The position numbers and the translations under genes are program-made. Shown here piece after piece: positions 15,395-38,170 of a DNA stretch of 64,000 nucleotides. Under the pieces are notes generated by a model. That model had not been told where the DNA came from. It saw only the letters and a program-made list of their open reading frames with translations, and did not search any database. Positions within the stretch are counted from its first letter, which is position 1, and every line of letters begins with the position of its first letter. This DNA comes from Actinomycetes bacterium (GTDB lineage: Bacteria; Actinomycetota; Acidimicrobiia; Acidimicrobiales; JAJYXR01), in NCBI GenBank assembly GCA_021801795.1, contig JAJYXR010000007.1, positions 5,048 to 69,047 of the forward strand, in the 5' to 3' direction.

Positions 15395-16798
15395 ATGTCG
15401 CCTGGAGGATCGTCCGAGAAGTCCGCCGAGAGGTCGTCCCTGGCGGCTGGGTCCTATGGGTTCGAGCACGGCCTGGTGGCGGTGATCGGCCAGGGGCATA
15501 TCGGTCTCACGCTAGCACTGCGAGCTGCCGAGGTGGGCTTTGGCGTGGTCGGCTACGACATCGACGAGCGGTTGGTGAAGGAGCTCGGGAGCTTCGTGAA
15601 GCCTGCTGGCGGTAAGGCTTTCGAGGTGGGCGCAGATGCATCCGGAGCCCCTCGGTTCAGGGTGGCTGCAGCCCTCGACGGCGTGGACCCGGCCCGCCTG
15701 GCCGCGGTGCTCTCCTCGGGTGCCTACTCGGCGACCGCAGATCCTGGTGACCTCGAAGGCTTCGACATAGGGGTGCTCGCCGTCCCCACGCCGCTCGACG
15801 ATTCGGGTGTCCCCGATCTGGACCCGATGCGCGCAGGTGCACGCCTCCTCGGCACCCACCTGCACCCTGGGGCAGCCGTTTCGGTGGAGTCCACGCTCTA
15901 TCCTGGCGCCACCGCCTCGGTGGTGATCCCTGCGCTCGAGTCGGCCTCGGGTCTGGTCGCCGGGCGGGATTTCCATGTCGGCTACAGCCCCGAGCGCATA
16001 GACACGGCCGGTGGCGAGTTCGGGTTCGAGAACACCCCGAAGCTGGTATCCGGTATGGACGCGGCCTCCCTCGCTGCTCTCTCAGGCTTCTACCGGAGGC
16101 TCGTCGAGACGGTGGTGGAGGTTCCCGGCATGGCCGAGGCCGAGATGGCCAAGGTGGTCGAGAACACCTTTCGCCATGTGAACGTGGCCCTGGTGAACGA
16201 GCTGAACCTGGTGGCGCGCTCGCTCGGAGTGGACCTCGGCGTGGCACTCGAGGCCGCTGCGACCAAGCCGTTCGGGTTCATGCCCTTCAGGCCGGGCCCA
16301 GGTGCGGGAGGTCGCTGCCTGGCAGGGGCGGCAGGATATCTCTCCTGGGCCGCACGCGAGGCGGGCGCGGGCGCTCTGACCCTGGTGGACGCAGCGACAG
16401 CCCTGAACGAGTCGATGCCCGCCCGGGTGGCGGCGCGCGTCGAGACGGGCCTGGCCGAGCGCTCCATGACCATGGCCGGTGCTTCCGTGCTGCTCGTCGG
16501 CCTCGCGTACAAGCCCGGGGTCTCCGAGACGAGGGGCTCCGCGGCCGTGGCGGTGGCGAACCTGCTGGCAGTGGCAGGCGCCAGGGTGGCGGCGGCAGAT
16601 CCGCTGGTCGGTGACTGCCCGGGTCTGCACGACTCGGTGGAGCGGGTCGAGCTCAGCCCCGACGAGGTCGCGAAGGCCGATGCGGTGGTGCTCCTGGTGG
16701 ACCATCCCGGACTGGACCTCGACACCCTGGTCGCGAGCGCTCGGTGGCTGCTGGACACCCGAGCGAGGCTCCGGGGACCCAGAGTCGAGTACCTCTGA
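15395..16798 (+). CDS. Nucleotide-sugar dehydrogenase (UDP-glucose/GDP-mannose dehydrogenase family)
   Basis: N-terminal Rossmann motif VAVIGQGHIGLTLALRAAEVGFGVVGYDID. Central GYSPERID..ENTPKLVSG, AKVVENTFRHVNVALVNE and PGPGAGGRCL (catalytic Cys region) are typical of the family. Confidence 0.85.
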   Translation: MSPGGSSEKSAERSSLAAGSYGFEHGLVAVIGQGHIGLTLALRAAEVGFGVVGYDIDERLVKELGSFVKPAGGKAFEVGADASGAPRFRVAAALDGVDPARLAAVLSSGAYSATADPGDLEGFDIGVLAVPTPLDDSGVPDLDPMRAGARLLGTHLHPGAAVSVESTLYPGATASVVIPALESASGLVAGRDFHVGYSPERIDTAGGEFGFENTPKLVSGMDAASLAALSGFYRRLVETVVEVPGMAEAEMAKVVENTFRHVNVALVNELNLVARSLGVDLGVALEAAATKPFGFMPFRPGPGAGGRCLAGAAGYLSWAAREAGAGALTLVDAATALNESMPARVAARVETGLAERSMTMAGASVLLVGLAYKPGVSETRGSAAVAVANLLAVAGARVAAADPLVGDCPGLHDSVERVELSPDEVAKADAVVLLVDHPGLDLDTLVASARWLLDTRARLRGPRVEYL

Positions 16799-16825
16799 TC
16801 CGACCGTAAGCCGCGTCCCCAGTTT

Positions 16826-18103
16826 CTAGTCCGGGTGCCCCCGCCGGTCGTCCAGCAGCGAAGCGTAGAGCTGGGCGTGGGCGGCCACGAAGCGGTCGAT
16901 CCCGAAGCGAGCCGTCGCAGCCCTCCTCGCGGCCTCGCCCATGGACGCCGCGAGCGCCCTGTCCGAGGCAAGCCTACGGATGGCTCCTGCGAGGTCATCT
17001 GGGCTGCGGGCAGGTACGAGAAGCCCCGAGACACCCTGTTCGACGACGGTTCGCACACCACCTACGTCGGTCGCCACCACGGGCCTCCCGGCGGCGGCAG
17101 CCTCGATGAGCGCCATCGGCGTGCCCTCGCTCACGCTGGTGAGGACCACTAGGTCCAGGTCGGCCAGAGCGGCTGGCATGTCCCGCCACCAGCCGAGGAA
17201 GTGCACCCTGTCGCCGATCCCGAGCTGGTGGGCCAGTGCCCTCAGCTCGCCTTCGAGCTCGCCGTCTCCGAGCACCGCCAGATGCCAGTCGCCCATGTGC
17301 CGGTCTCCCAGCCCTGCCATGGCCGCGAACAGCGTGGCGTGGTCCTTCACCGGCACCAGCCTGCCTGTCACGCCGATAAGGACCTCGCCTGCGCCGAGGC
17401 CGATCCGGCGCCTCAGCTCACCAGGTGCCGAACGCTCCCCCAGGGGTGGGACCGCGCCGAGGGCTTCGGTGTCCACGCCCAGCTCTATGACGTGCCAATC
17501 CTCCGGCCGCCCCACGCCCATCTCGAGCAGGCTGTCGCGCACCTCGGGGCTCACCGCCACCAGCGCGTCCGAGACCTTCGCTAGAAGCCGCTCCGCCGCG
17601 AGGAAGGCTGCAGTCGCGCTGCGACCGAAGTACCCCTCCAGCACGTGCCCGTGGTAGGTGTGGACCACGACAGGGCGAGGACGGATACTGGCCGCTGCCA
17701 GCCTGCCGAGCGCCCCGGCCTTGGCCATGTGGGTATGCACCAGCGCGCTCCCTGCTAGCGCTCCCCGCAGACGCACCAGCGCGGCGAGGTCGTGTGCGGG
17801 CCTTATGGGCCTCACGAGCGGTACGCGCTGGACGACGATCCCAGGGGCATGGAGCTCGCCCTCGCCATCGGGTGCCCTGCCCGCCACCACCCGCACCTCG
17901 AAGCCCCCCGCCAGGCCAGAGCCGAGGCCAGAGGCGAGCCCCATCACGGCGCGCGTGGCACCCCCCACGTTCGGGCGGGTGAGCACCTCCGTGACCAGCG
18001 GCGCTCCAGCACCAGCGACGCCAGCTCTCTCATGCGTCTCGGACGCACCTGATGCGCCGTGGGCGGCCGACGCATCGGCCATGTCGGGAACGTCTCCCAC
18101 CAT
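16826..18103 (-). CDS. Glycosyltransferase family 4 (GT-B, Glycos_transf_1)
   Basis: N-terminal GGATRAVMGLASGL and the C-terminal hallmark SVSEGTPMALIEAAAAGRPVVATDVGG. Confidence 0.85.
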   Translation of the reverse strand: MVGDVPDMADASAAHGASGASETHERAGVAGAGAPLVTEVLTRPNVGGATRAVMGLASGLGSGLAGGFEVRVVAGRAPDGEGELHAPGIVVQRVPLVRPIRPAHDLAALVRLRGALAGSALVHTHMAKAGALGRLAAASIRPRPVVVHTYHGHVLEGYFGRSATAAFLAAERLLAKVSDALVAVSPEVRDSLLEMGVGRPEDWHVIELGVDTEALGAVPPLGERSAPGELRRRIGLGAGEVLIGVTGRLVPVKDHATLFAAMAGLGDRHMGDWHLAVLGDGELEGELRALAHQLGIGDRVHFLGWWRDMPAALADLDLVVLTSVSEGTPMALIEAAAAGRPVVATDVGGVRTVVEQGVSGLLVPARSPDDLAGAIRRLASDRALAASMGEAARRAATARFGIDRFVAAHAQLYASLLDDRRGHPD

Positions 18104-18293: not shown

Positions 18294-20762
18294 CTATCGA
18301 GGCCGGCGCGAATAGGCAGAGCGCGCCCTGGTGTGTCCAGCGATGACCCTGTCAAGGACATGGTTCCGCACCCAGCGGACAGGCGCGCTGACGCGCCAGG
18401 AGGTGCTGGCGTATACCTCGGCCAGTTCTTCACGCAGCGCGGCTTCCTGGTCATGCACCGCCCCGAGCGCCTTCTCGTACTCGTCCGCCTGGCGGCTGTG
18501 TTCGGCTTCGATCTGCTCGACCGTGACGCGATGGTGTTCTGTGAGGGCTGCGATCCCGGCACGAAGCTCGTCCGCCTCGGCTTCGAGAATGCGGTTGGCC
18601 AGCCAGGCTGCTTCCGGCGTGGAGGCGGGCACCTCCTGAAGCATGGCACGCAGCCGGTCGGTGCTGCCCTGCCCGCATCCCTGAGCGGCCTCGAGGAACG
18701 ACTCGACCACTGCCTCGAGGCACAGGCGCTCGGCATCAAGCGTCGTAACGACGGGCTGACCCTCGGAGCCTCCGAGGACCGGGTCCAGGCCGGGACCGGC
18801 CGCCGGATCGTCCATGCCAGGACCCCCAGTTCGCGCGCGCACGCTCGGGGAATGGCTGGCGATCACCCAGGCAGAGCTGCCCTCCCCCGGCACCGTGTAC
18901 GGATCCAGGCCGAGCTGTCGCAGTATCCCCGCTGGGCCCGCTCCGGTCGTTGCCGTCCGACTCGTAGCCGTCGTGGTCGTCCCGGACGGCTGGTCGAGGC
19001 GGCAGTCGGCCACACTCCCTCCTGTGGCCACGCCGATCACGCCGGCGGGGCTGAGCCGCCTCACCCACTCAGTGAGCCAGCCGGCATCACTGCCCCGAGA
19101 CGACGACCCGAGCCAGATGAAGTCCAGCGACCCAGGCTCGAAGCGCTCGAACGGATAGCGACCTGCATCAGGGACCATCTCCACACGCTCGTGGAACGTC
19201 GCGACGCGCGCCGCGAGCTCAGCCATGTCGAGGCGATGCTCCGGCGAGTCCGCGCCGTCGTCCAGCACGACCAGCCTGCGACATCCCCAGTGGGCGAGGA
19301 TGTGAGACACGAGGCGCCCGCGCCCGGCATTCACTATCACCCCGGTCCCGTCGAGGCCCCGTGCTTCGAGGAAGTAGGGCAGCTCCTCGGGGAATGGGAG
19401 CCGGGAGGCAGGGTCCCCATAGTTCCACCTGTACCAGGGTGCAGAGAGCGGCGCGTCGGGACGCAGAGCGATAGAGCGCGTCCAGCCCCGCTCTGGCAGC
19501 GGCAGGTCCACATAGCACCCAGCAGCGCGCCTGAGCTGCACACCGGCACGAGCCAGCGAAACAACAACCGATACGCCGTCTCCATCGAGGCCGTCGCTCG
19601 CACGGAGCGCGCCGAGCGCGTCAGCGCGCTTCATGCCCACGGCGGGTAGGTCGCGCTCTGCGCCGTACAGCGAGCACGAGCCTGGCTGGAGCAGGGTTCC
19701 GTCAGCCTCCGCGCCCAGTATCTCGTCACTCCAGTAGGCCCTTGCAGCGGATGCGCCCGCGTCGAGTGCCGCGCACAGGGCGTCCAGCCAGCCGGGCCGG
19801 GGTCGCACTGCGCCGGCCAACAGGGCCACGAGCTCGTTACGAGCGCTCTCGCAGCCGACCTCCCAGGCGTCGGTGAGGCCGTAGCCGCCCGGCACGCGCC
19901 TGACGGTGGCCCCCTGTAGCGAGGCGAAGAGTCCTCCGAGTCCCGAGGCAGCGTCCACGATCACGACCTCGTCGCCGTCGGCCAGTCCGGAGTCCCCGAG
20001 CGCCGCTAGCGACGCAGCCCAGCGCTCGAAGCGTCCCGGCAGTACCGGAAGGATCACCGAGATGCCGGGGCGAAAGCTCGCCGGGTCCTCTAGAAGAGCG
20101 CCGGAGCTGGCCCGGCCCAGTGCGAAGCGCTCCGCGTAGCCCGCTATGAGCGGGGCCCTCTCCAGCAGTTCTGCCCTGGTGAAGTGCACGATGCGAGGGT
20201 TTGGGTGCGGATCGAACGCCATCGAGCACCACTCGGTGCCGAGCATCCCCACCCGGCTGGTCCATCGGGTGTCGCCGGTGAAGGCTACCTGGTCGGGCAG
20301 GCTGATGTCATAGCCGATGAGCCTCATGATCGCGGCCTGCTCCCACCAGGGATGCTCTACCAGGTCCTCGCATCCCCAGACCTCGTCGAGGAACTCCGCT
20401 GCCTCCCCACCCGCATGGAGAGCGAGCACCGCTGCACATGGCTGGCGCCCGCCGCGATAGGCATGCTCCACCATCCACAGGAAGCGCTCGGGAGTGGCCA
20501 CGTCAGCGATGTCGGCGGTGGTGTCGGCGAAGGTGGCGTCGGCATCCACCCATAGCACGAAGTCGTAGCGCTCGGTGAGGTCGCGCATGAGCAGAACCTT
20601 GCTCCACGAAACAGGTCTCTCGTGGCAGAGCGAGCGGGTCTCCAAGACGAGATCGTAGCCGTGACGGGACGCGTAATCCTCGAAGGCAGGTCCGGACAGG
20701 TCGAGGAAGCGCCGGTGCGAGCCCACTGCCAGGGAACAGAGGACCTTCCTCAGGGGAGACAT
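18294..20762 (-). CDS. Multidomain glycan-modifying enzyme: DxD nucleotide-sugar transferase + GT2-like + class-I methyltransferase-like + coiled coil with an SWRxSxPxR tail
   Basis: ATG 20762 (GAGGA 10 nt upstream) is preferred over the 20834 start. FVLWVDADATF is a DxD GT-A motif. ISVILPVLPG...DEVVIVDAASG is GT2-like. RRLVVLDDGADSPE...LDFIWLGSS is MTase-like. The C-terminal heptad-rich region ends in ASTSWRVSAPVRWV. Confidence 0.7.
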   Translation of the reverse strand: MSPLRKVLCSLAVGSHRRFLDLSGPAFEDYASRHGYDLVLETRSLCHERPVSWSKVLLMRDLTERYDFVLWVDADATFADTTADIADVATPERFLWMVEHAYRGGRQPCAAVLALHAGGEAAEFLDEVWGCEDLVEHPWWEQAAIMRLIGYDISLPDQVAFTGDTRWTSRVGMLGTEWCSMAFDPHPNPRIVHFTRAELLERAPLIAGYAERFALGRASSGALLEDPASFRPGISVILPVLPGRFERWAASLAALGDSGLADGDEVVIVDAASGLGGLFASLQGATVRRVPGGYGLTDAWEVGCESARNELVALLAGAVRPRPGWLDALCAALDAGASAARAYWSDEILGAEADGTLLQPGSCSLYGAERDLPAVGMKRADALGALRASDGLDGDGVSVVVSLARAGVQLRRAAGCYVDLPLPERGWTRSIALRPDAPLSAPWYRWNYGDPASRLPFPEELPYFLEARGLDGTGVIVNAGRGRLVSHILAHWGCRRLVVLDDGADSPEHRLDMAELAARVATFHERVEMVPDAGRYPFERFEPGSLDFIWLGSSSRGSDAGWLTEWVRRLSPAGVIGVATGGSVADCRLDQPSGTTTTATSRTATTGAGPAGILRQLGLDPYTVPGEGSSAWVIASHSPSVRARTGGPGMDDPAAGPGLDPVLGGSEGQPVVTTLDAERLCLEAVVESFLEAAQGCGQGSTDRLRAMLQEVPASTPEAAWLANRILEAEADELRAGIAALTEHHRVTVEQIEAEHSRQADEYEKALGAVHDQEAALREELAEVYASTSWRVSAPVRWVRNHVLDRVIAGHTRARSAYSRRPR

Positions 20763-20993: not shown

Positions 20994-22172
20994 ATGAGCA
21001 ATCCTGAGCAGCCTACGCACACCACCACGCCTGATCCTCGGGACCGCGTGCCAGTGGGCATGGCCGTGCCATCCCTCCGGATCGCCTATGTCACGGTCCC
21101 CAAGGCTGCCTGCACCAGCATGCTATGGGGGCTCGTTGGCCTGGCTGACGACCGCCCTGGCGTGAGGCAGGGAAGCAGCGACATCCCGGAGGTGACCCCG
21201 GAGCTCACTATCCACGACTGGCGGACCTGGCCGGAGAGCCTCACCACCCTCGATCGGCTGCCGGACTCCGTGCTGGCAGAAGGCACCGACGCTGCCGGCA
21301 TGAGCTGGCTCGTGTTCTCCGCCGTGCGAGAGCCACTTGCCCGGCTCTTCTCGGCATGGCAGTCGAAGATCCTCTGCCAAGAACCGCTCTACGTCGCACG
21401 ATACGGCGGCCAGCCCTGGTTCCCGCCACCGCCGCGAAGCACAGGCGAGGTAGCCGAAGGCTTCGCGGCATTCGTTGAAGCCCTCGGCGCTGACCGGTCG
21501 CTGGCAGTCGATGACTGGCACTGGATAAGCCAGGTTCGCCTGCTCGCCATCGACCGGGTCCGCTACGGATGCATCGCTGGCATCGACCGGGCCGAGCCTG
21601 GAACCGCCCATACCAGTGGCCTCGAGATCCAGCCTCTGGATTCCCTGGTCGCTCAGGTGAACGCCCATGTGCATGACCAGGGCAGCAGCGCAGTGTTGGA
21701 CCTCGCCAGGCGCAACGCGACCCTCCTGCCACTCTCTGCCGAGACGGTGAGCGCGAAGACCGCTCAGCTCGTGGCCGACATGTACGAGGAGGACTACCTC
21801 GCTCTTGGCTACGAGCCACCGTCGCTCGAGTCCGCGAAAGGGTTGTCCTGGGAACCGCTTCTCCGGGCAGTCCGCATGCTGGTAGATCGTCACGAGCGCA
21901 TAGCCGACCTCGCCCGGATCGCCCGCGAGCGGCTGTCCAAGATCGAGAGCCTCGAGTCGGCCAACTACCACGCTCGCCAGGAGTCTGCGGCCCTCCAGGC
22001 CCAGGTCGAGCACCTCGAGGACGAACGCACGCGGCTCGGCGAACGCTCCAGAAGCATCGAGGACGCGCTCGAAAGCCTCGTGAGGGACAGGGAGCACCTG
22101 GAGAGGATCCTCCACAGCCGGACCTGGCGCTGGAGCGAGCCGTTACGACGGATCTACGCGCGCACCAGATGA
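20994..22172 (+). CDS. Carbohydrate sulfotransferase-like protein (Sulfotransfer_2/CHST-like) with a C-terminal coiled coil and SWRxSxPxR-type tail
   Basis: The internal ATG 20994 avoids overlap with the divergent gene; the track ORF starts at 20622. IAYVTVPKAACTSMLW and FSAVREPLARLFSAWQSK fit the PAPS-binding motifs of family-2 sulfotransferases. The last ~90 aa are heptad-rich and end in HSRTWRWSEPLRRIY. Confidence 0.65.
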   Translation: MSNPEQPTHTTTPDPRDRVPVGMAVPSLRIAYVTVPKAACTSMLWGLVGLADDRPGVRQGSSDIPEVTPELTIHDWRTWPESLTTLDRLPDSVLAEGTDAAGMSWLVFSAVREPLARLFSAWQSKILCQEPLYVARYGGQPWFPPPPRSTGEVAEGFAAFVEALGADRSLAVDDWHWISQVRLLAIDRVRYGCIAGIDRAEPGTAHTSGLEIQPLDSLVAQVNAHVHDQGSSAVLDLARRNATLLPLSAETVSAKTAQLVADMYEEDYLALGYEPPSLESAKGLSWEPLLRAVRMLVDRHERIADLARIARERLSKIESLESANYHARQESAALQAQVEHLEDERTRLGERSRSIEDALESLVRDREHLERILHSRTWRWSEPLRRIYARTR

Positions 22173-22220: not shown

Positions 22221-23474
22221 CTAGGCGACCACCAGAAGGGGGCCGAGCGCCTGGGCGAGGGCGGCGCGTGCGTTCTCCTCACGGTATTCGCCCACCGACG
22301 CAGATATCTGAGCCGGGTCGGCGGTCCGCGCCAGGCGGAGTCCTTCCATGATCGCGCGCCACCAGCGGGCCGGGTCCTCTCCCTCGCATAGCACCCCGTT
22401 CCTCCCGGGCACCACCACCTCGGGCGCGATGCCGATGGGGCGCGCCACCACCGGGCATCCTGCGGACAGGGCCTCCACCACCGGCAGGCAGTACGCCTCC
22501 TCCCGCGAGCACATGAGGTATACGTCAGCCTCCCGGTACGCCTGGTAGAGCTCCGCTTCGCTCAGGTAGCCGCGAAAACGAACCCCCGCCGCGCTGAGAA
22601 GCCGGCACCGGCGCGCCCTGAGCGCGGAGCGCGGCTCGGTCCCGACCACCACGAAGCGCACCCGCTCGCGTCCCGAGGCACGTTCCAGCGCAGCCCTGAG
22701 CGCCAGGCGCTCGACGATGTCCATGCCCTTGCGGTGCCACTCGTTCAGGTCCACCACCATCAGCACCTCCGACCCCCGACGCCTGCTGGCTGGCGCTGCC
22801 CCGGGGACAGGAGGGGCAGCATCGCCCACAGGAGCGGTGAGGTCCTGCGGCTCGAGGTAGCCGCCGAGCAGGCACACCCGGCTGTCTCGTGCTGAGAGTC
22901 CCGAGGCGTCCCATGCCTCGGCCTCTGCGGCGCTGTCGTGGACCACCAGGTCGGCCACCTCTGCCACGCGCGCGAGCGCGGTCGAGACCCGCTCGCGCTG
23001 TGCAGTCGACATGGGCACCGAGGAAGGCGGCTGGTAGTGGGGGAAGAACGCGAGGCGGCACCCCGCGTGCGCTTCCCTGATGCCGCATACCTCCTCGATG
23101 GCCCACGCGTTCGCCCAACCGTTCAGGACGAGGAGCAGCCTCTCCGCTTTCGTCCCGCCGGCGAGGCTGTCGAGCGCCGGCACCGCGGGATCGAGCGTGT
23201 CCTGCTCCGGGTAGCCCCTGAGAACCCTGAGCGCGGCACCCGCCTGCGCCGAGGCGCGGGCGAGCGCACCGGCGCACCTGGCGTCCCGGTCGTCGGTGAC
23301 CACGGTGAGCCCCGGCGCCTCAGCCCCGAGAACGCCTACCAGGCGCCGCAGGTGCCTGCCCAGCCCCGAGTACATCTGGGTAGGGGAGGGCACCACCAGC
23401 AGCGCCTCGCGCCTCACCTCCGGGGGAGCGACGCGGCCAGCAGGCTCGACCGGGGCTTCGCGCAGGGCACTCAA
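22221..23474 (-). CDS. Glycosyltransferase (GT-B, GT1/GT4-like)
   Basis: The C-terminal SREEAYCLPVVEALSAGCPVVARPIG matches the Glycos_transf_1 E-x7-E region. A 4-nt overlap with the upstream gene (23471-23474) indicates an operon. Confidence 0.8.
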   Translation of the reverse strand: MSALREAPVEPAGRVAPPEVRREALLVVPSPTQMYSGLGRHLRRLVGVLGAEAPGLTVVTDDRDARCAGALARASAQAGAALRVLRGYPEQDTLDPAVPALDSLAGGTKAERLLLVLNGWANAWAIEEVCGIREAHAGCRLAFFPHYQPPSSVPMSTAQRERVSTALARVAEVADLVVHDSAAEAEAWDASGLSARDSRVCLLGGYLEPQDLTAPVGDAAPPVPGAAPASRRRGSEVLMVVDLNEWHRKGMDIVERLALRAALERASGRERVRFVVVGTEPRSALRARRCRLLSAAGVRFRGYLSEAELYQAYREADVYLMCSREEAYCLPVVEALSAGCPVVARPIGIAPEVVVPGRNGVLCEGEDPARWWRAIMEGLRLARTADPAQISASVGEYREENARAALAQALGPLLVVA

Positions 23475-28924: not shown

Positions 28925-29216
28925 CTCCGCCGAGCGAACCGCCGCCCGAGCCGAGGAGTCCGCAGGAGGAGAGAAGACCGGCTAGCGACACCACGAACAA
29001 CATGTGGCGCAACGCCACGGCCGCACGGCGCGCCGAACGGTCCCGATCCTGCCCCCCATCGGGAAGCAAAGCTAGCGGGTGCAGTGGCTTGGTGCTGCGA
29101 GGACCCGCTCCTCGGGTCCGTTGTGCGCACGACTTCGACCACCACTGCAAGGAAACGGAAAGAAACGGGACGCCAGGCTGTCTGGCCCCGGACAGATCGG
29201 TTAGCGTTGGGCGGCG

Positions 29217-29787
29217 ATGAAGGCCCTCGTCACAGGCGGTGCCGGATTCATAGGCTCGCACCTGGCAGAGCACCTGCTAGCCGAGGGCCACTTCGTCACC
29301 GTGCTCGACGACCTCTCCACTGGCCGCTACGAGAACCTGGCCCACCTCATGGACCACCCACGCATGCGCTTCGAGCTCGGCTCGGTGCTCGACCACGAGG
29401 CCGTGGAGAGGGCGATGGAGGGCGCCGACAGCGTGTTCCACCTCGCAGCGGCAGTGGGGGTGGAGCTCGTGGTGGAACGCCCCCTCGAGGGCATAGCCAC
29501 CAACGTGAGGGGCTCGGAGATAGTGATGGAGCACGCCAACTTGCATCGAGCCCGGGTGCTGGTCACCTCCACGAGCGAGATTTACGGGAAGAACTCCTCG
29601 GACTCGCTCTCGGAGGACGACGACCGCATACTCGGTTCGCCTCTGAAGAGCCGCTGGTCCTACTCCGAGGCGGGCGCCGGACATCTCCAGGGTGCGTGCG
29701 CTGATCGGGTTCGAGCCCGCGGTGAACCTGGACGGCATCATCGCCAGGCTCGTCGCGTACGAACGCGGGGACCACACGGGCACGTGA
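29217..29787 (+). pseudogene. Internally deleted, frame-shifted copy of the 33185-34150 NAD-dependent epimerase/dehydratase gene
   Basis: The first ~152 codons are ~80% identical to 33185 (MKALVTGGAGFIGSHL...SRWSYSEA). The sequence then jumps at ~29672-29682 to the last ~35 codons (..ISRVRALIGFEPAVNLDGIIARLVAYERG..*), which read in another frame (stop 29785-29787). About 133 central codons, including the catalytic YxxxK region, are missing. Confidence 0.75.
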
Positions 29788-29820
29788 ACGCGCGCACCCG
29801 GGTGGATGACGCCGAGGCGC

Positions 29821-31208: not shown

Positions 31209-32276
31209 GTGAGCGACCTTCCCCTCTACGCGTACCCGCTCCTCTTCCTCGGGGCGCTCGCTCTGAGTGCCCTGCTCACCCCGGTGGCCATCGGCTTCGC
31301 CACCCGGCACGGCATCCTCGATCACCCGGCCCCGGGCAAGTCCCACACGAGGGCCGTCCCTTACCTGGGCGGGGCGGCGATCGTGGCGGCGTTCTCGGCG
31401 GCGATCGTGGTCGGGGCCTTCGTGGACCCGCCCTCGGCGGGCCTCGGCCAGCTAGCGGCACTGCTCGGCCTGGCGCTAGTGCTCGCCGTCGTCGGTCTCG
31501 CGGACGACGTGCGGGACCTGCCGATCTGGCTGCGCCTCGCTGTGGAGGTGGCGGCCGGGATCGGGGTGTGGGCCACCGGCACTGTGATGCACCTGGCGGG
31601 ATTCCCGGGTTGGGCCGACGCGCTCGTCACCATCGCCTGGGTGGTGGTGGTGACCAACGCCTTCAACCTGCTCGACAACATGGACGGCCTCTCGGCAGGC
31701 GTGGCTGCCATCGCCTCGCTCGGGATATTCGGCATAGCCGCGATGAAGGGCGAGTTCCTGGTCGCGGCGCTCGCTATCGCACTGGCGGGATGCGCGGCCG
31801 GGTTCCTGCGCCAGAACTTCCACCCGGCTCGTATCTACATGGGCGACGCAGGGAGCCTCTTCCTCGGCTTCATGGTCTCGGTGCTCGCATTGAAGCTCCG
31901 CGACAACCCGGCGACGAGGGTGGACGTAGCCGCGCTCGTGGCGGTGCTAGGAGTCGCCCTCTTCGACACCGCCCTCGTCGTGCTCGCCCGGATCGCGCAC
32001 CACCGCAGCCCCTTCAGCGGGGGCCAGGACCACACGAGCCACCGCCTGGTGCACCTGGGCCTTCCGGTGAAGGCGGCAGTGGGGGTCATCTACCTAGTGG
32101 CCGCGGCGCTGGCAGGGATAGGAGTGAGCCTCGCTGATGCAGGATCGGCGGTCCACGTCGCGGGAATAGCGATCCTCGGGATCGTCGGCGTCGTGGTGCT
32201 GGCCGCGTTCTTCCTCGTGCCCGTCTACGGCGACAGCCTCGACGAGCGCATACGACAGGCGTTCACCAGGCATTGA
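31209..32276 (+). CDS. Polyprenyl-phosphate N-acetylhexosamine-1-phosphate transferase (WecA/MraY superfamily)
   Basis: About 10 TM segments. NAFNLLDNMDGLSAG and YMGDAGSLFLGF are the signature motifs of the family. Confidence 0.85.
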   Translation: MSDLPLYAYPLLFLGALALSALLTPVAIGFATRHGILDHPAPGKSHTRAVPYLGGAAIVAAFSAAIVVGAFVDPPSAGLGQLAALLGLALVLAVVGLADDVRDLPIWLRLAVEVAAGIGVWATGTVMHLAGFPGWADALVTIAWVVVVTNAFNLLDNMDGLSAGVAAIASLGIFGIAAMKGEFLVAALAIALAGCAAGFLRQNFHPARIYMGDAGSLFLGFMVSVLALKLRDNPATRVDVAALVAVLGVALFDTALVVLARIAHHRSPFSGGQDHTSHRLVHLGLPVKAAVGVIYLVAAALAGIGVSLADAGSAVHVAGIAILGIVGVVVLAAFFLVPVYGDSLDERIRQAFTRH

Positions 32277-32803: not shown

Positions 32804-32806
32804 TGC

Positions 32807-33184: not shown

Positions 33185-34150
33185 ATGAACGCTCTCGTCA
33201 CCGGTGGCGCCGGTTTCATAGGATCGCACCTCTGCGAGCACCTGCTGGCAGGTGGCCACTCGGTCGGGGTGCTAGACGACCTCTCGACGGGCCGCTACGA
33301 CAACATCTCGGACCTGCTGGACCATCCCGGGATGCGCTTCGAGCTCGGATCGGTCCTGGACCCGGATGCCGTCGACCGGGCGATGCGAGATGCCGACAGC
33401 GTCTTCCACCTGGCTGCCGCGGTGGGGGTGGAGCTGATCGTGGAGAGACCGCTGGAGGGCCTGGCGACGAACGTCCGGGGCTCGGAGATAGTTCTGGAGG
33501 CAGCCCACCGCTACGGCGCGAGAGTGCTCGTCACCTCCACCAGCGAGATATACGGGAAGAACTCATCGGACTCGCTCTCCGAGGACGACGACCGCATCCT
33601 CGGATCCCCGCTGAAGAGCCGCTGGTCGTACTCCGAGGCCAAGGCTATCGAGGAGATCCTGGCCTACACCTACTGGCGTTCCAGGTCTCTCCCCACTGTC
33701 ATCGTCAGGCTGTTCAACACGGTGGGCCCCCGCCAGTCCGACCGCTACGGCATGGTGCTGCCCCGCTTCGTGCGCCAGGCGTTGCTCGGTAACCCGCTCA
33801 GCGTCCATGGTGACGGTCGCCAGACGCGCTGCTTCTGCTTCGTGGGAGACGTGGTGCCTGCCCTGGTCCGCCTGATCGAGCACCCCGAGGCCTACGGGCG
33901 GGTGTTCAACGTCGGCAGCACCGAGGAGATCTCCATAGACGAGCTGGCCCACCGGGTGCTGGCCGCGACGGGCTCCTCCTCGAAGATCCGCTACGTTCCC
34001 TACGAGGAAGCCTACGAGGAGGGCTTCGAGGACATGCCGAGACGAGTTCCGAACATCACGCGGGTACGCGACCTCATCGGCTTCGAGCCCACGGTGGACC
34101 TCGACCAGATCATCCACACGCTGATCGCCCACGAGCGATCCTCGAGCTAG
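33185..34150 (+). CDS. NAD-dependent epimerase/dehydratase (UDP-glucuronate decarboxylase-like SDR)
   Basis: GGAGFIGSHL Rossmann motif, STSEIYG and YSEAK (YxxxK catalytic motif). This is the intact parent or paralog of the 29217 pseudogene. Confidence 0.9.
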   Translation: MNALVTGGAGFIGSHLCEHLLAGGHSVGVLDDLSTGRYDNISDLLDHPGMRFELGSVLDPDAVDRAMRDADSVFHLAAAVGVELIVERPLEGLATNVRGSEIVLEAAHRYGARVLVTSTSEIYGKNSSDSLSEDDDRILGSPLKSRWSYSEAKAIEEILAYTYWRSRSLPTVIVRLFNTVGPRQSDRYGMVLPRFVRQALLGNPLSVHGDGRQTRCFCFVGDVVPALVRLIEHPEAYGRVFNVGSTEEISIDELAHRVLAATGSSSKIRYVPYEEAYEEGFEDMPRRVPNITRVRDLIGFEPTVDLDQIIHTLIAHERSSS

Positions 34151-34152
34151 TC

Positions 34153-34978: not shown

Positions 34979-35062
34979 TCAGGAGTAGTAGCGGTAGACC
35001 ACCTCGGCCACGCAGCAGGGTTTCTCGGCTCCATCGGACTCGATGGTCAGTGCGGCGGTCAT
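34979..35062 (-). pseudogene. 27-codon remnant of a MaoC-like dehydratase 3' end
   Basis: MTAALTIESDGAEKPCCVAEVVYRYYS* compared with ..LGLTIEAEGSEKPCCVAEVVYRYYA* at the end of the 30668 gene, with ~85% nucleotide identity over ~70 nt. Its ATG overlaps the stop of the 35059-37413 gene (ATGA). Confidence 0.6.
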
Positions 35063-37413
35063 CCGGCGGCCTTCAGGTCCTTCCGGACGGTAGCCAGGTA
35101 CTTCCTGAACCCCGGGTCGCGCGGATCCCAGTGCACGGCTGCCTCGGTCTCGCTCAGTGCCTGGCTCAGGTACGACCTCTGCTTCGCCGGGTAGAGGTGC
35201 GAGAGGCCCACGAGCACCTGGGCGAGCTCGTAACGGTACTGGCTGGCCTCGGGCTCGGCCCTCACGGCTGCCACCAGGTAGGTGTCTGCCTGGGAGAGGT
35301 CGGTCTGCTGTGTGCTGGCGGTGGTGGACTTGCTCGCCGCGACCGCCAGATCGACGCCCGCGGCGGCAGGGTAACGCGCTGCCCAGGGGTTCAGCACCAT
35401 GGCATGGTTCAGATCCGCGAAGTACTCGCTACCGAGATGGCTCACGGCCGAGGAGGAGGCACCGGACTTCTCCGCGTGGACATAGGCGGCCTGTATCTTC
35501 TCTGCCTGCCAGTAGTCGTGCCCTGCACGCCAGGGACCGTCGGCGCCGTAGGCGACCAGCCCACCCACCACGATGCAGGCCAGGCCGGTCAGCAGGGTGG
35601 GCCATCCCCGCCCGTCCCACCAGCCGGTGCGCCCAGGCGCAGCTCTGGTGGCCTTCGCACCTCCAGCCCCGGGGGCGCCTGGGGGCTCAGGGGTGCTGGA
35701 ACCCGAGACACCGGAGCGCACCAGCAGATCCAGGGCCCCCGCGCTCACCACGGCCAGGAGCCCGAGCAGGAGCCACCAGGACATCGAGAGGGCTATCTGC
35801 TGGATGTTGAAGACGGCCTGCACCACGTAGGCCACGAGCCCGGCTGCCACCGCCCCGAGCACCACCCGCCTGGTGGTGGCCTCTGCCGACTCGGCCACCC
35901 CGGCGCGCTCCACGCGCCGGAGCCTCATAAGGGCTCTGAGCGAGATCACCCCCGCGGCCACCACCAGTGCCACCAGTAGGGCCAGCCCGACGAAGCCGCG
36001 GTCGGCCAGGGTGTTCATGAAGATGTCGTGCGCTCCGTCTGCTGCGTATACGAAACCCAGGTACTTCGCCCAGCTGGCGCTCTCGTAGCGGGGGAAGACG
36101 TACACGAAGGTGTCCGAGCCGGTCCCTGTGAGCGGGTGGTGGGCCGCGATATGGAGTGCCGCGGTCCACATGTCGAAACGCTGTGCGACGCTGCTGGAGG
36201 GCCCGGAGCGAAAGAGGCTCGATATCTTCCCACCGACGTAGTGGGCCCCACCCAGGGCGAAGATGACCGTGGCTGCTCCTGCTGCTGCCAGAACGCCGGC
36301 AACCGGCAGCGCGGGCCGGCGGCGGATCTCCGGCCACATGACGATGGCGAGCACCACCCCAGACGCGATCACGGCCACCCAGGCACCCCGGGCCGCGCTC
36401 TGGAGCAGCTCTGCCAGCAGCGCTACCACCAGGACGCCTACGCCGAGCTGGACGAGCCGGTTCCTCGACCGCAGCCCCAGCAGCACGCAGGTGGGCAGCA
36501 CGATGGAGATGTACCCCGCGAGGTGGTTCGGGTTACCGAGGGTGGAGAAGACGTTATGGAAGGGGAGGCCCTTTATCCAGTGGACGAAGTCCCAGTGGTG
36601 GCCGTGGAGCACCAGGTCGTGGAGCTGGACCAGCCCGTACCAGGCCGCCACGCTGCCTGCGCCGAACGCGAGCGTTCCGAGCACCGCGGGCACGTCGGAG
36701 GCATCGAATGCCTCTGCAGCGGAGAAGGTGAGGGTGACGAATGCCAGCGCCGAGTAGAAGCCGTCGTAGGAGCCATGCGCCCCGAGCATGCTCAGGTGCA
36801 CGTTCACGCTGGTGAGGGAGCTCACGAGCACCCAGAGCAGGTAGGCGCCGAGCAGCCAGTGCAGGCCGTTGCGCCACCTCGGCAGGGCTCCGCTCGAGAC
36901 CGTGCCGGTGATCCACAGACCAGCCAGGACCAGGGATCCGACCACCAGCACGGTGTACTTCGGCAGGTCGAACACGTCGGTGGTGTGGGGATCGAAGACC
37001 ACTGGCACCACCAGGGCCATCGCCATCACGGTGAGGGCCCTGGCCGCCCTGAAGGGCTCCTTGCCCCGCGCCACCGAGGCCGCGGCCACCCCAGTCCCCA
37101 CGAGGGCCCCTAGGAGCACCATGAGGAACACGGTGAAGGTCCAGGAGGTGATGATGCCGCCGGCCCATGCGAGGACGAGCACCAGCCAGGCCGCCCCCAG
37201 CCAGGCCGCCACGGGAACAGGCACGCCGGCGGGCACCAGCCGCTCGAAGCGCTCCATCCAGGGGGCCAGTGGGCGTCCTGTCTCGTCGGCCACCCGATGC
37301 CCGGTGTGCCGGTTACGGTTCGCTCCCCGCGGGGCCTGGCGTGTGGCCTGCCGCTGTGCCTGGGTCACCTGGGCTTCCCGAAGTGCCCTCTTGCGCGCTC
37401 CCTCTCTCGGCAC
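35059..37413 (-). CDS. O-antigen ligase/polymerase-like (Wzy_C) polytopic membrane protein with a C-terminal soluble helical-repeat domain
   Basis: At least 10 TM helices. GAHDIFMNTLADRGFVGLALL resembles the Wzy_C/O-antigen ligase loop motif. The C-terminal ~200 aa are soluble and TPR-like. Confidence 0.7.
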   Translation of the reverse strand: MPREGARKRALREAQVTQAQRQATRQAPRGANRNRHTGHRVADETGRPLAPWMERFERLVPAGVPVPVAAWLGAAWLVLVLAWAGGIITSWTFTVFLMVLLGALVGTGVAAASVARGKEPFRAARALTVMAMALVVPVVFDPHTTDVFDLPKYTVLVVGSLVLAGLWITGTVSSGALPRWRNGLHWLLGAYLLWVLVSSLTSVNVHLSMLGAHGSYDGFYSALAFVTLTFSAAEAFDASDVPAVLGTLAFGAGSVAAWYGLVQLHDLVLHGHHWDFVHWIKGLPFHNVFSTLGNPNHLAGYISIVLPTCVLLGLRSRNRLVQLGVGVLVVALLAELLQSAARGAWVAVIASGVVLAIVMWPEIRRRPALPVAGVLAAAGAATVIFALGGAHYVGGKISSLFRSGPSSSVAQRFDMWTAALHIAAHHPLTGTGSDTFVYVFPRYESASWAKYLGFVYAADGAHDIFMNTLADRGFVGLALLVALVVAAGVISLRALMRLRRVERAGVAESAEATTRRVVLGAVAAGLVAYVVQAVFNIQQIALSMSWWLLLGLLAVVSAGALDLLVRSGVSGSSTPEPPGAPGAGGAKATRAAPGRTGWWDGRGWPTLLTGLACIVVGGLVAYGADGPWRAGHDYWQAEKIQAAYVHAEKSGASSSAVSHLGSEYFADLNHAMVLNPWAARYPAAAGVDLAVAASKSTTASTQQTDLSQADTYLVAAVRAEPEASQYRYELAQVLVGLSHLYPAKQRSYLSQALSETEAAVHWDPRDPGFRKYLATVRKDLKAAG

Positions 37414-37507
37414 GAGACGCGAGGCTAGCCGCTCGGCGCCGGGGCCGAGCGGACACAGGCTTGGTGCCCCCGAGACGATCCGGGAACGTCCGCCGGGCGG
37501 AGAAAGC

Positions 37508-38170
37508 TCAGCGGACCCGGCGGAGAAAGCCTCTCGGGTTGAAGGTCATGGCGAACTTCTCGCGGGAGGCGTCCACCTCGAAGCGGTCGTTCCTGGCGAG
37601 GAAGTCCTCTACCGCCTCGTAGGGCCCTGGCCCGAAGTCGGCTGCCACCGGGTGTCCGTTCACGTTCGTGTCCTCCACCACCAGGTAGCTCCCGAGGGTG
37701 ACCAGGGGGGCATACACCTCTAGCTCGGCGCTTACGTGGGCTGCGGAGTGGTCGGAGTCGAGGATCACCATCACCACGGTGGCGTCGTGGGCCATCTGGC
37801 GAACCCTGCCTACCATCTGGGGGTCCGTGGATGAACCATGGAGGTAGCTGATCCGCGGGTGGACGGGGCGCTCTGCGATGTCCAGGACGTCCACCGACAC
37901 CACCCTCCCGGTTCCGAGGAGGTCGCAGATCGAGGCCAGGTACAGAGCGCTGCCGCCGTGGGCGGTGCCGGTCTCCACCACCAGGTCAGGCCGTAGCTCG
38001 TACATCAGCTCCTGGTAGACCCAGAGGTCGAGCGGGCACTTCTGGGTGGGGACCCCGAGAAAGTAGGTGTCCTGCCAGGTCCGCTCGAGGCTGTCGTAGT
38101 AGAGCCGGTGGAAGTCCTCTACTACCCGAGTGTCGACCCGTGGCTGGCTGGTGGTGTCATCGCTGCTCAC
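37508..38170 (-). CDS. CmcI/cephalosporin-hydroxylase-family class I methyltransferase (sugar O-methyltransferase-like)
   Basis: FLGVPTQKCPLDLWVYQELMYELRPDLVVETGTAHGGSALYLA closely matches the CmcI-family core. Confidence 0.8.
   Translation of the reverse strand: MSSDDTTSQPRVDTRVVEDFHRLYYDSLERTWQDTYFLGVPTQKCPLDLWVYQELMYELRPDLVVETGTAHGGSALYLASICDLLGTGRVVSVDVLDIAERPVHPRISYLHGSSTDPQMVGRVRQMAHDATVVMVILDSDHSAAHVSAELEVYAPLVTLGSYLVVEDTNVNGHPVAADFGPGPYEAVEDFLARNDRFEVDASREKFAMTFNPRGFLRRVR

Follow-up and report, generated by a model that had tools for sequence, protein, structure and literature searches.

Gene content of the locus

A Pfam scan of 47 ORFs across the whole 64-kb stretch of DNA analysed (hereafter the window) recovered every gene class that a first-pass annotation had named between positions 15395 and 38170, and independent gene calls on the public contig concurred with the ORF assignments (Table 1). 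The gene content of that annotation is real, but four corrections were needed, concerning the GT4 count, the GT2 count, the type of the dehydrogenase and the uniformity of the island. Only five GT-B/GT4 proteins pass Pfam (GT4a to GT4e), where at least six GT-B enzymes had been counted. One of the two proposed GT2-like domains also passes, whereas the other, in the 822-aa protein, lies below the cut-off of 23.3 bits. The DxD GT-A domain, the WecA-like initiating transferase (a WecA/MraY-type match), the Wzy_C/O-antigen-ligase-like protein, the CmcI-type methyltransferase and the UXS-like SDR were all found as described. The 822-aa protein consists of an N-terminal GT34-like DxD GT-A stretch, a GT2-like middle, a region without assignment, a C-terminal coiled coil and an SWRxSxPxR tail. 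Genes unrelated to glycan synthesis lie within the same 23 kb, encoding a MaoC dehydratase, a PIN/PhdYeFM toxin-antitoxin pair and a VIT1 transporter, and a 245-aa coiled-coil protein is also encoded there.

Table 1 Features of the locus, in order of position in the window
Feature	Coordinates	Strand	Evidence
Giant surface protein, 2061 aa, predicted secreted; candidate acceptor or partner	9018..15203	-	TIG E 2.5e-16; DUF2808 E 3e-13
NDP-sugar 6-dehydrogenase; conserved core	15395..16798	+	All three UDPG_MGDP_dh domains match; TIGR03026 288 bits
GT4a glycosyltransferase; conserved core	16826..18103	-	Glycos_transf_1 E 1.6e-36; Glyco_transf_4 E 6e-24
822-aa multidomain protein; accessory block	18294..20762	-	Glyco_transf_34 29 bits (cut-off 23); Glycos_transf_2 16 bits, sub-threshold
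PAPS-type carbohydrate sulfotransferase (Sulfotransfer_2), predicted cytoplasmic; accessory block	20994..22172	+	PF03567 E 8e-11, 43 bits (cut-off 22)
GT4b glycosyltransferase; accessory block	22221..23474	-	Glyco_trans_1_4 E 6e-23
GT4c glycosyltransferase; accessory block	23471..24955	-	Glycos_transf_1 E 2e-18; Glyco_transf_4 E 3e-7; 494 aa on public contig
GT4d glycosyltransferase; accessory block	24952..26295	-	Glycos_transf_1 E 4e-18; 447 aa on public contig
GT2 glycosyltransferase; accessory block	26350..27126	-	Glycos_transf_2 E 1e-24, 88 bits; 258 aa on public contig
GT4e glycosyltransferase; accessory block	27165..28499	+	Glycos_transf_1 E 5e-36
SDR pseudogene copy	29195..29850	+	Repeat D2, 77% identity; alignment homology stops near 29671
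WecA/TagO-type polyprenyl-phosphate HexNAc-1-phosphate transferase (initiator); conserved core	31209..32276	+	Glycos_transf_4 E 2e-31
UXS-like extended SDR; conserved core	33185..34150	+	Epimerase E 1e-54; best solved relative human UXS1, E 1e-52
732-aa Wzy_C protein; conserved core	35059..37257	-	Wzy_C (PF04932) 62 bits (cut-off 31.7)
CmcI/rhamnosyl-type SAM O-methyltransferase; strain-specific	37508..38170	-	RMNT_CmcI E 6e-65, 219 bits

A strain-specific block lies within a lineage-wide core

Window proteins were compared by tblastn with 39 Acidimicrobiales loci around Wzy_C. Copies of the WecA-like enzyme (55-66% identity), the SDR (52-66%), the dehydrogenase (41-48%) and GT4a (48-57%) were found near Wzy_C; those of GT4a adjoin it in at least 12 related loci, and those of the dehydrogenase lie near it in many relatives. 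Together with Wzy_C, these genes form a five-gene core that is found repeatedly at the loci of this Wzy_C family in MAGs of Acidimicrobiales. The sulfotransferase, the GT34-like multidomain protein, GT4b to GT4d, the GT2 and the CmcI methyltransferase had no match in the 39 loci, and GT4e gave weak partial matches only. The supposed 23-kb glycan island is thus a composite. Its glycan genes are real, but they comprise a lineage-conserved core and a roughly 10-kb insert specific to the strain (18.3-28.5 kb) and holding the GT34-like protein, the sulfotransferase, four GT4 enzymes and one GT2, with the O-methyltransferase as an added strain-specific gene directly upstream of the Wzy_C gene and in the same direction. 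This architecture is a new result beyond the earlier gene list. The junction of the accessory block is marked by the SDR pseudogene, which retains about the first 152 codons and the last 35 or so, with an internal deletion between them. No G+C dip was seen at the variable block.

Among the core enzymes, the dehydrogenase has the UDP-ManNAcA dehydrogenase 4r16 as its best solved relative (E 3e-48). The 6-dehydrogenases for UDP-ManNAc (4r16), UDP-GlcNAc (3g79) and NDP-GalNAc (Cap5O) scored 168, 120 and 111 bits, against at most 87 bits for UDP-glucose dehydrogenases, and the profile search that matched TIGR03026 gave the same trend. In sequence, the enzyme resembles UDP-HexNAc 6-dehydrogenases more than Ugd, which makes the previously suggested UDP-GlcA/xylose-type precursor route insecure. 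The SDR is predicted to be a nucleotide-sugar decarboxylase, epimerase or dehydratase. The WecA-like protein has about 9-11 transmembrane segments and matches TIGR02380 (wecA) at E 3e-29, under the cut-off of that model.

The Wzy_C protein is a candidate O-oligosaccharyltransferase or ligase

The Wzy_C protein begins with a membrane transferase of WaaL fold, behind which come a single extra transmembrane segment and, at the C-terminus, a TPR domain (residues 574-731). Because of this extra segment, the TPR domain would be placed on the catalytic (outer) side. WaaL from Cupriavidus metallidurans (PDB 7TPG) was the best match by profile (E 1e-5) and by structure: a Foldseek search with the AF2 model (pLDDT 82) returned 7tpg_B at the top (E 2e-5; target-normalised TM-score 0.57), with TPR proteins next. 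In the large loop, H410 is invariant and R360 near-invariant, and these residues align to the WaaL His and Arg. Unlike WaaL, the protein is 330 residues longer and carries the TPR domain. Lipid A-core is not known from Actinomycetota, so the acceptor would have to differ from that of WaaL. More than 100 full-length homologs with 40-55% identity were found in Acidimicrobiales. Such order-wide conservation alongside a varying set of glycosyltransferases is more in keeping with a ligase or oligosaccharyltransferase than with a Wzy polymerase dedicated to one repeat unit.

The giant surface protein is linked to Wzy_C in the closest relatives

The N-terminus of the giant protein resembles a signal peptide. 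The protein further carries about 12 Ig-like repeats of the DUF2808 type, a single TIG domain and, in its C-terminal part, three repeats, each about 110 aa long; its gene also holds internal DNA repeats. The same triple C-terminal repeats, without family assignment, occur in a second TIG protein (3-1799). In the window itself, 20 kb separate the giant gene from that for Wzy_C, and the two are not divergent. In the five loci whose Wzy_C copies are most similar to that of the window (L008, L010, L018, L020 and L029), giant DUF2808/TIG orthologs directly adjoin Wzy_C, and L020 has a co-directional array SDR-WecA-Wzy_C-giant-giant. With low-complexity sequence masked, a giant-like gene was found within 10 kb in 15 of the 39 Acidimicrobiales loci and in none of 41 control loci (606 kb), and the similarity persisted after composition correction. 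Many Acidimicrobiaceae loci gave only short, weak matches 1.7-8 kb away, and three loci with full flanks had no giant-like gene.

The first-pass annotation had taken the ligase-like protein and the Thr/Ser-rich giant together as a sign of protein O-glycosylation. The link between the two genes is supported by their adjacency in the closest relatives and by the WaaL fold with its TPR domain. Two other points weaken the argument: the PglL_A (PF15864) motif is absent from the Wzy_C protein, even at E values up to 1, and the composition of the giant (Thr 17.7%, Ser 14.4%) stems from its dozen or so beta-rich Ig-like repeats and not from mucin-like linkers, so that it provides no specific evidence for glycosylation.

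The accessory block encodes a predicted PAPS-type sulfotransferase

The CHST-like assignment survived both profile search and motif checks. The match covers positions 8-251 of the 252 in the PF03567 profile, which was present in 60 of 60 homologs. Both PAPS-binding motifs, 5'-PSB and 3'-PB, are invariant in the homologs (P36-K37-T41 and R112-P114-R117-S120), with a His in the stretch between them. Foldseek matches to the AF2 model (pLDDT 87) were weak (E 0.24-0.38), although the top ones were nonetheless sulfotransferases; PDB sequence searches gave no match. No other protein shares more than 42% identity with it, and its homologs are encoded in glycan loci, where they neighbour GT2/GT4 genes, further sulfotransferases and sulfatases. 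An alternative start at 21054 yields the 372-aa product that is publicly called. The C-terminus forms a coiled coil of about 100 aa; such coiled coils and similar SWRxSxPxR tails are common to the sulfotransferase and the divergently transcribed 822-aa glycosyltransferase. No PAPS-synthesis genes were found within the 64-kb window.

Proposed role of the locus and alternatives

The reported absence of Wzx, Wzz and Wzm/Wzt from the island extends to the whole window, nor does the window contain an ORF of at least 10 transmembrane segments that lacks an assignment. The sole ABC-2 pair in the window (53827-55568) is of the DrrA/DrrB type.

In this uncultured member of the Acidimicrobiales (Actinomycetota), we tentatively read the gene content as a composite cell-envelope glycosylation locus whose Wzy_C core would attach a glycan to the giant neighbouring surface protein, and we favour this protein O-glycosylation with a probability of about 0.45. 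Judging from its family, the WecA-like enzyme would transfer HexNAc-1-P onto Und-P at the cytoplasmic face, and soluble glycosyltransferases would extend the chain. The PAPS-dependent sulfotransferase and the SAM-dependent methyltransferase are both predicted to be soluble, with neither a signal peptide nor a transmembrane segment, and for this reason they probably decorate the chain while it is cytoplasmic. The lipid-linked glycan would then cross the membrane through an exporter encoded beyond the 64 kb. Synteny, fold and the TPR domain suggest that, at the outer face, the Wzy_C-TPR enzyme may transfer the glycan en bloc, with Ser/Thr residues of the giant protein as the likeliest acceptor, as for the O-oligosaccharyltransferases WsaB/WsfB and PglL. 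C-terminal TPR motifs occur in WsfB and PglL, and the S-layer gene sgsE adjoins its slg cluster (PMC2943079); PglL genes frequently adjoin their target genes (PMC3643930).

The main alternative, which we regard as less likely, is a teichuronic/SCWP-type secondary cell-wall glycopolymer. Here the WecA/TagO-type enzyme would start a linkage unit, the glycosyltransferases would extend an anionic polymer with uronic acid and sulfate, and Wzy_C would either polymerise this material or join it to an acceptor in the wall, in the way suggested for Bacillus anthracis WpaA/WpaB. The giant protein would be unglycosylated and held at the wall by its three C-terminal repeats binding the polymer, which would account for the synteny. 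The initiator and the UDP-ManNAcA-dehydrogenase-like enzyme in the core are consistent with such a polymer, order-wide conservation of the core is what an essential wall polymer would be expected to show, a sulfated polymer would act as an anionic wall component, and the triple repeats of the giant and the TIG protein could be wall-binding modules. SCWP loci of B. anthracis and Paenibacillus alvei likewise combine a TagO/WecA initiator with a membrane protein of the Wzy/WaaL clan, to which WpaA/WpaB belong, and lie near genes for S-layer-type proteins, as in P. alvei (PMC6030368). However, unlike those loci (TagO, TagA, CsaB, WpaA/WpaB), the 47 ORFs scanned include no TagA (GT26), CsaB, SLH domain or LCP (LytR-CpsA-Psr) ligase, and the match is to PF04932 with a WaaL fold, not to the PF13425 of WpaA/WpaB. 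The module adjoining the giant gene in the closest relatives consists only of SDR, WecA and Wzy_C, which is insufficient for a polymer, and the TPR domain suggests a protein partner.

A free or capsular sulfated exopolysaccharide of the Wzx/Wzy type, with Wzy_C as polymerase and Wzx and a co-polymerase encoded elsewhere, appears improbable. The locus does resemble the synechan cluster xss of Synechocystis PCC 6803 (two sulfotransferases and eight glycosyltransferases) and the predicted wps-1 of Actinoplanes missouriensis in joining many glycosyltransferases and sulfotransferase genes in a single locus; wps-1, also actinobacterial, has two sulfotransferases and a methyltransferase and, like the present locus, joins a CHST-type sulfotransferase to a SAM methyltransferase (PMC8205485, PMC13390465). 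The Wzy_C Pfam family also includes many Wzy polymerases. Yet xss and wps-1 encode Wzx, Wzy and Wzz/PCP and yield free exopolysaccharide (PMC8205485, PMC13390465), while Wzx, Wzz/PCP and OPX are all absent from the 64 kb, which hold instead a WaaL-fold, TPR-fused transferase linked to a giant surface-protein gene. Polymerases co-vary with the repeat unit, whereas this Wzy_C is an order-conserved core member and the glycosyltransferase set is not, and its best structural match is a ligase whose Arg and His it keeps. Modification of a glycolipid, like the mycobacterial glycopeptidolipids or sulfolipids, with no protein or polysaccharide target, is highly improbable. It would suit the methyltransferase, since the rhamnosyl O-methyltransferases of mycobacterial glycolipids belong to the CmcI/RMNT family, and sulfated lipo-oligosaccharides are the classical products of bacterial sulfotransferases (PMC8205485). 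Nevertheless, the methyltransferase scores 187 bits with NF045824, far under the equivalog cut-off of 400, the window has no PKS, NRPS, acyltransferase or MmpL-type genes, and the WecA-type initiator with the Wzy_C transferase indicates a polyprenyl-linked pathway.

Comparison with known protein O-glycosylation systems

Under the favoured reading of protein O-glycosylation, the PglL/PilO oligosaccharyltransferases share with the Wzy_C protein the Wzy_C domain, the loop Arg and His common to WaaL and PglL, and, in the closest relatives, a presumed acceptor gene adjoining that of the enzyme (PMC3643930). Unlike in those systems, PglL_A is not detected, the host is of the Gram-positive type, an extra transmembrane segment and a full TPR domain follow the transferase, and an Ig-repeat protein of 2000 aa, not a pilin, is presumed to be the acceptor.

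The slg clusters of Geobacillus stearothermophilus NRS 2004/3a and P. alvei (WsaB/WsfB) also belong to monoderm hosts. There, as in the present locus, a cluster of cytoplasmic glycosyltransferases adjoins or lies near the gene for a large surface protein, strain-specific glycosyltransferases are central with conserved functions at the edges, and a Wzy_C-domain transferase, with a TPR element in WsfB, is predicted to move a lipid-linked glycan to Ser/Thr/Tyr; O-methylation is a further shared glycan modification (PMC2943079). In contrast to slg, the locus has no wzm/wzt in the window, no rml genes and no G+C dip at its variable block, and its initiator is WecA-type, not WbaP-type. It also differs in its actinobacterial host and its PAPS-type sulfotransferase. 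The earlier remark that sulfated bacterial surface glycans are uncommon agrees with the literature, in which glycan loci bearing a sulfotransferase are rare outside cyanobacteria (PMC8205485, PMC13390465).

Conserved core and strain-specific block of the island

ORFs in the window (G+C 65-72%) were chosen by third-position G+C, and 47 of them were scanned with Pfam. The gene classes named in the first-pass annotation were all found in place, in agreement with independent gene calls on a public contig; ENA and NCBI metagenome contigs carry genes identical to those described here. The number of glycosyltransferases (GTs) had been overestimated: five GT4-type GT-B proteins pass Pfam, not at least six, and of two proposed GT2-like domains one passes and the other stays below threshold (16 vs 23.3 bits). 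A 427-aa ORF at 28421-29704, candidate for the sixth GT-B, was rejected as a gene because it has no Pfam match, its translation is rich in Arg, Gly and Pro, and its codon-position bias is poor. The description of the locus as a single 23-kb glycan island was too simple, since MaoC, PIN/PhdYeFM and VIT1 genes, a coiled-coil protein and an SDR copy with an internal deletion lie in the same span.

Features of the locus and of its surroundings (window positions; for the multi-transmembrane protein, positions within the related loci L030 and L009)
Feature	Position	Strand	Basis
NDP-sugar dehydrogenase	15395-16798		Pfam
822-aa protein with GT34-like DxD stretch	18294-20762		Pfam
Coiled coil and tail of the 822-aa protein	18294-18700	-	
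Sulfotransfer_2 enzyme	20994-22172		43 bits, cut-off 22
Coiled coil and tail of the sulfotransferase	21850-22172	+	
GT2	26350-27126		Pfam
SDR copy	29195-29850		
245-aa protein	29821-30558	-	
Tandem repeats of the 245-aa protein	30234-30426		
MaoC gene, 3' end	30651-30739		
WecA/MraY-type transferase	31209-32276		Pfam
UXS-like SDR	33185-34150		closest solved relative human UXS1, E 1e-52
MaoC 3' fragment	34962-35050		
Wzy_C protein	35059-37257		Wzy_C, 62 bits
CmcI-type methyltransferase	37508-38170		Pfam
Giant protein	9018-15203	-	
C-terminal repeats of the giant protein	9018-10300	-	
C-terminal repeats of the second surface protein	3-500	-	
Second sulfotransferase	51495-52364	-	Sulfotransfer_3, E 2.5e-14; Sulfotransfer_1, E 1.3e-7
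PAS histidine kinase/OmpR-type regulator pair	49191-51498		
Conjugation/T4SS-like module	42589-48928	-	
558-aa membrane protein	47252-48928		
ABC-2 pair	53827-55568		
tRNA-Glu/Asp/Phe cluster	59666-59923		
N6/N4 DNA methylase	60004-61563		
Lipoprotein-like paralogs	1845-2981; 7696-8919	+; +	
modABC-like transporter and HTH+PBP_like regulator	3104-7631		
Multi-transmembrane protein	L030 3148-5022; L009 12426-14363; ~15 more loci	-; -	

More than 100 full-length homologs of the Wzy_C protein, sharing 40-55% identity, were found, almost all of them by genome scan in MAGs of Acidimicrobiales/Acidimicrobiaceae, which places the window in an uncultured member of Acidimicrobiales. The window proteins were compared by tblastn with 39 related loci, each extended by flanks of at most 10 kb per side. 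Around Wzy_C, the relatives carry the WecA-like transferase (55-66% identity), the SDR (52-66%), the dehydrogenase (41-48%) and GT4a (48-57%). Matches to the sulfotransferase, the 822-aa GT, GT4b, GT4c, GT4d, GT2 and the CmcI methyltransferase were found in none of the 39. Because the core genes recur near Wzy_C and the block genes match no related locus, we read the island as a core conserved in the lineage that has received a strain-specific insert (18.3-28.5 kb). The block shows no G+C anomaly that would signal horizontal transfer, and no tRNA lies beside it, the sole tRNAs of the window being at 59.7-59.9 kb. This layout of a core plus a variable block suggests how surface glycan diversity in Acidimicrobiales may originate.

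The SDR copy is ~80% identical to the SDR across the upstream region and the first ~152 codons, followed by an internal deletion, with the C-terminal ~35 codons recognisable out of frame. The other remnant, an 89-nt fragment, matches the MaoC 3' end at 82% identity. Both look like rearrangement scars, and their joint presence suggests that an SDR...MaoC segment was rearranged or underwent segmental duplication at the margin of the accessory block. The SDR pseudogene is separated from MaoC by the gene of a 245-aa protein that matches no family; the centre of this protein is a predicted coiled coil made of 21-nt (7-aa) tandem repeats (ERHEATL). A multi-transmembrane protein of ~620-645 aa (mutual identity 42-94%) is conserved as the direct neighbour of Wzy_C in at least 17 Acidimicrobiaceae loci; it has no Pfam match and no counterpart in the window, and could add another envelope-glycan enzyme to the Acidimicrobiaceae core.

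The Wzy_C protein resembles WaaL and, in close relatives, is encoded beside a giant surface protein

The family profile of the Wzy_C protein matches the WaaL ligase 7TPG (E 1e-5), and two residues, R360, conserved to at least 90%, and H410, invariant in the family, align with the loop Arg and His of WaaL; the loop residues common to WaaL and PglL have been listed (PMC3643930). WaaL was also the best structural match (E 2e-5) of the AF2 model (pLDDT 82, pTM 0.85). The WaaL-like part is followed by a basic linker, one more transmembrane helix and a TPR domain (residues 574-731, TPR-protein matches at probability 1.00). Since WaaL ends in the cytoplasm three helices past its catalytic loop and an extra helix follows here, the TPR domain is predicted to lie outside the membrane, on the same side as the catalytic loop. 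No PglL_A motif (PF15864) was detected in the protein, even at E values up to 1. This absence places the protein outside the PglL subfamily as judged by profile; an oligosaccharyltransferase (OTase) function stays compatible with it, since PilO also lacks the motif (PMC3643930). Throughout the order the protein retains 40-55% identity even as GT repertoires change, a pattern that fits a putative ligase or OTase with a fixed acceptor, unlike a repeat-unit-specific Wzy polymerase. Two MAGs contain pairs of Wzy_C-TPR paralogs (L011/L020 in YP4.bin77 and L013/L029 in TL1-4.bin29), and in each of them only one copy has SDR, WecA and giant surface-protein genes around it. As only one paralog per MAG is associated with a giant protein, these pairs suggest a split of the family into functionally distinct copies.

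At 2061 aa, the giant protein consists of a signal-peptide-like N-terminus, ~12 DUF2808-type Ig-like repeats, a TIG domain and three C-terminal repeats of ~110 aa; its Ser+Thr content of 32% is due to the beta-rich repeats. Although the giant and Wzy_C genes are 20 kb apart in the window itself, an ortholog is directly adjacent to Wzy_C, at 0.5-1.8 kb, in the related loci L008, L018, L020 and L010/L029, those whose Wzy_C most resembles that of the window. The giant proteins of L008 and of the window share 44% identity across 1241 residues. L020 has the order SDR-WecA-Wzy_C-giant-giant on a single strand, L009 encodes three tandem secreted proteins of ~820-866 aa with the repeat of the giant upstream of Wzy_C, and several further Acidimicrobiaceae loci show single repeat matches in similar places. 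With low-complexity masking, a giant-like gene was found within 10 kb in 15 of the 39 Acidimicrobiales loci and in none of 41 unrelated control loci (606 kb).

The C-terminal repeats (ARICDTRSG...VVLNVTA...GYLTVYP...SNLNF...DV.GYY) belong to no Pfam family and are not accompanied by an LPXTG motif. A second surface protein, which runs off the window start, carries the same repeat type after its TIG domain. These repeats may represent an undescribed wall-anchoring or wall-binding module.

A very divergent putative carbohydrate sulfotransferase

The sulfotransferase call held up in profile searches: the match to PF03567 exceeds the cut-off and runs along profile positions 8-251 of 252, and all 60 homologs retrieved from 5.8 billion proteins contain the same domain. 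The sequence includes VPKAACTS and VREPLARLFS. In an alignment of 34 homologs, P36, K37 and T41 of the 5'-phosphosulfate loop (P-K-x-x-x-T/S) and R112, P114, R117 and S120 of the 3'-phosphate motif (R-x-P-x-x-R-x-x-S) are invariant, as is H176. H74 (TIHDW), between both PAPS motifs and at least 90% conserved, is a candidate catalytic base by position only. We assign the enzyme to PF03567, with a putative activity of the CHST/HS2ST type, PAPS-dependent carbohydrate sulfotransferases. In the AF2 model (pLDDT 87), a helix of 88 residues (286-373) comes after a globular domain; heparan-sulfate 2-O-sulfotransferase and SULT1C2 ranked highest in Foldseek, below significance, and a sequence search against the PDB gave no match. 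Because neither a signal peptide nor a membrane segment was detected, a cytoplasmic site of action is expected.

HMMER, run exhaustively against 1.84 billion cluster representatives, returned 497 relatives at E<=0.001 and 37 at E<=1e-30, with a maximum identity of 42% to any representative; the enzyme is a very divergent outlier. Its homologs are found in glycan settings, with GT2 and GT4 genes, additional sulfotransferases and sulfatases. A coiled coil and a similar tail are common to the sulfotransferase (SRTWRWSEPLR) and the divergently transcribed 822-aa GT (STSWRVSAPVR), and the consensus of the sulfotransferase homologs also displays an S..W....LR pattern. The shared tail may be an oligomerisation or membrane-docking element. 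A second, unrelated sulfotransferase with no NCBIfam match is encoded 13 kb outside the island, between the kinase/regulator pair and serS.

Nucleotide-sugar enzymes and the search for an exporter

Among solved structures, human UXS1 is the best match of the SDR (183 bits, runner-up 150); all NCBIfam equivalogs score below their cut-offs. The dehydrogenase had been taken to point to a UDP-GlcA/xylose-type route but is nearer to UDP-ManNAc, UDP-GlcNAc and GalNAc 6-dehydrogenases than to Ugd: its scores are 168 bits to UDP-ManNAcA dehydrogenase, 120 to NDP-GalNAcA dehydrogenase and 111 to Cap5O, and at most 87 to UDP-Glc dehydrogenases, and NCBIfam-type profiles give 67 bits for TuaD vs 176 for ManNAc dehydrogenase. 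It fits poorly as the UDP-glucose 6-dehydrogenase of a Ugd plus UXS route (UDP-Glc -> UDP-GlcA -> UDP-Xyl).

The lack of Wzx, Wzz, Wzm and Wzt, reported initially for the island, extends to the whole 64 kb. Neither a Wzx flippase nor a Wzz/PCP protein was found in the 47 ORFs scanned, no Wzm/Wzt exporter lies in or beside the cluster, and no unassigned ORF in the window has 10 or more transmembrane segments. Beyond the right end, only purM, purF and a PHP-domain gene were found. Two candidates were rejected. The ABC-2 pair scores as DrrA/DrrB family and sits 16 kb off by serS, ctaA and ctaB; the 558-aa membrane protein, considered as a flippase, has 6 transmembrane segments, belongs to the T4SS-like module and carries TrbL_3 in the public call. 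The GTs all lack transmembrane segments, and the 822-aa GT ends in a coiled coil. Soluble cytoplasmic GTs and coiled-coil modifying enzymes are a trait of ABC-transporter-dependent pathways (slg/O-PS type). Coiled-coil-bearing terminating enzymes are known in such pathways, and the tails of the sulfotransferase and the 822-aa GT (SWRxSxPxR) are reminiscent of them.

Possible fates of the glycan

We propose that the WecA-like enzyme would prime Und-P and that core and accessory GTs would assemble on it a cytoplasmic oligosaccharide or polysaccharide, to be decorated in the same compartment by the soluble sulfotransferase and the CmcI methyltransferase. An unlinked exporter would carry the product over the membrane, and the Wzy_C-TPR enzyme would pass it to the giant surface protein. 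We give this complete chain a probability of roughly 0.45. Published OTase precedents fit, by analogy, a ligase/OTase role of the Wzy_C protein: Gram-positive S-layer glycosylation clusters encode the Wzy_C proteins WsaB and WsfB, TPR motifs occur in WsfB and PglL, and the slg cluster adjoins the S-layer gene sgsE (PMC2943079), and PglL genes often neighbour their targets (PMC3643930). A broader version, in which OTase-dependent O-glycosylation of giant Ig-repeat S-layer-like proteins (by a WecA-type initiator, an SDR and a TPR-fused WaaL-fold transferase) would be lineage-wide in Acidimicrobiales, with a glycan sulfated and methylated here through an acquired GT/sulfotransferase/methyltransferase block, we regard as rather doubtful.

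By analogy with SCWP/WpaAB systems (PMC6030368), the product could instead be a wall-linked anionic polymer bound by the C-terminal repeats of the giant protein. We consider this, the main rival, unlikely, since TagA (GT26), CsaB (pyruvyltransferase) and LCP (LytR_cpsA_psr) genes are absent from the scanned ORFs of the window, where the TagO/WecA-like gene is the only gene of such a pathway, and the minimal module of close relatives is too small for a polymer. A free Wzy-dependent exopolysaccharide fits less well and seems quite improbable; the co-variation expected of a polymerase and its repeat-unit GT set is not seen, Wzy_C being order-wide and the accessory GTs being confined to this locus among those compared. 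A glycolipid, which also fits less well, is very improbable.

Acidimicrobiales are an abundant, almost uncultured order with an essentially undescribed cell envelope, and a literature search on the Acidimicrobiia cell surface (S-layers, glycosylation) found no relevant paper. The conserved Wzy_C-TPR/giant pairing offers a testable candidate for OTase-type O-glycosylation or surface-protein anchoring in this order. To our knowledge, PMT-type O-mannosylation is the only established kind in Actinomycetota, so that an OTase system, if true, would be the first; sulfated surface glycoproteins are so far known from haloarchaea, and the one proposed here would be bacterial.

Sulfotransferase glycan clusters and Wzy_C OTases beside surface-protein genes are already known. 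What is new is the combination of a sulfotransferase cluster with a Wzy_C/surface-protein pairing, the host lineage and the order-wide synteny of a TPR-fused WaaL-like protein with giant surface proteins. Bacterial sulfated glycans have been viewed as nearly confined to cyanobacteria (PMC8205485). Sulfotransferase-bearing glycan clusters include that of synechan (PMC8205485) and the actinomycete wps-1, which is predicted only (PMC13390465); the present locus would add a second actinobacterial lineage with a predicted one, via a very divergent enzyme.

Other genes in the window

Just downstream of the locus, the T4SS-like module encodes a VirD4/TraG coupling protein, an AAA_10/TraG-type ATPase, an EccE-like protein and the 6-transmembrane TrbL_3 protein, and may be an integrative conjugative element. 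The DNA methylase gene follows the tRNA cluster. Two paralogs with lipoprotein-like N-termini, each with a Gly-rich low-complexity insert and no Pfam match, flank the modABC-like transporter and its neighbouring regulator.
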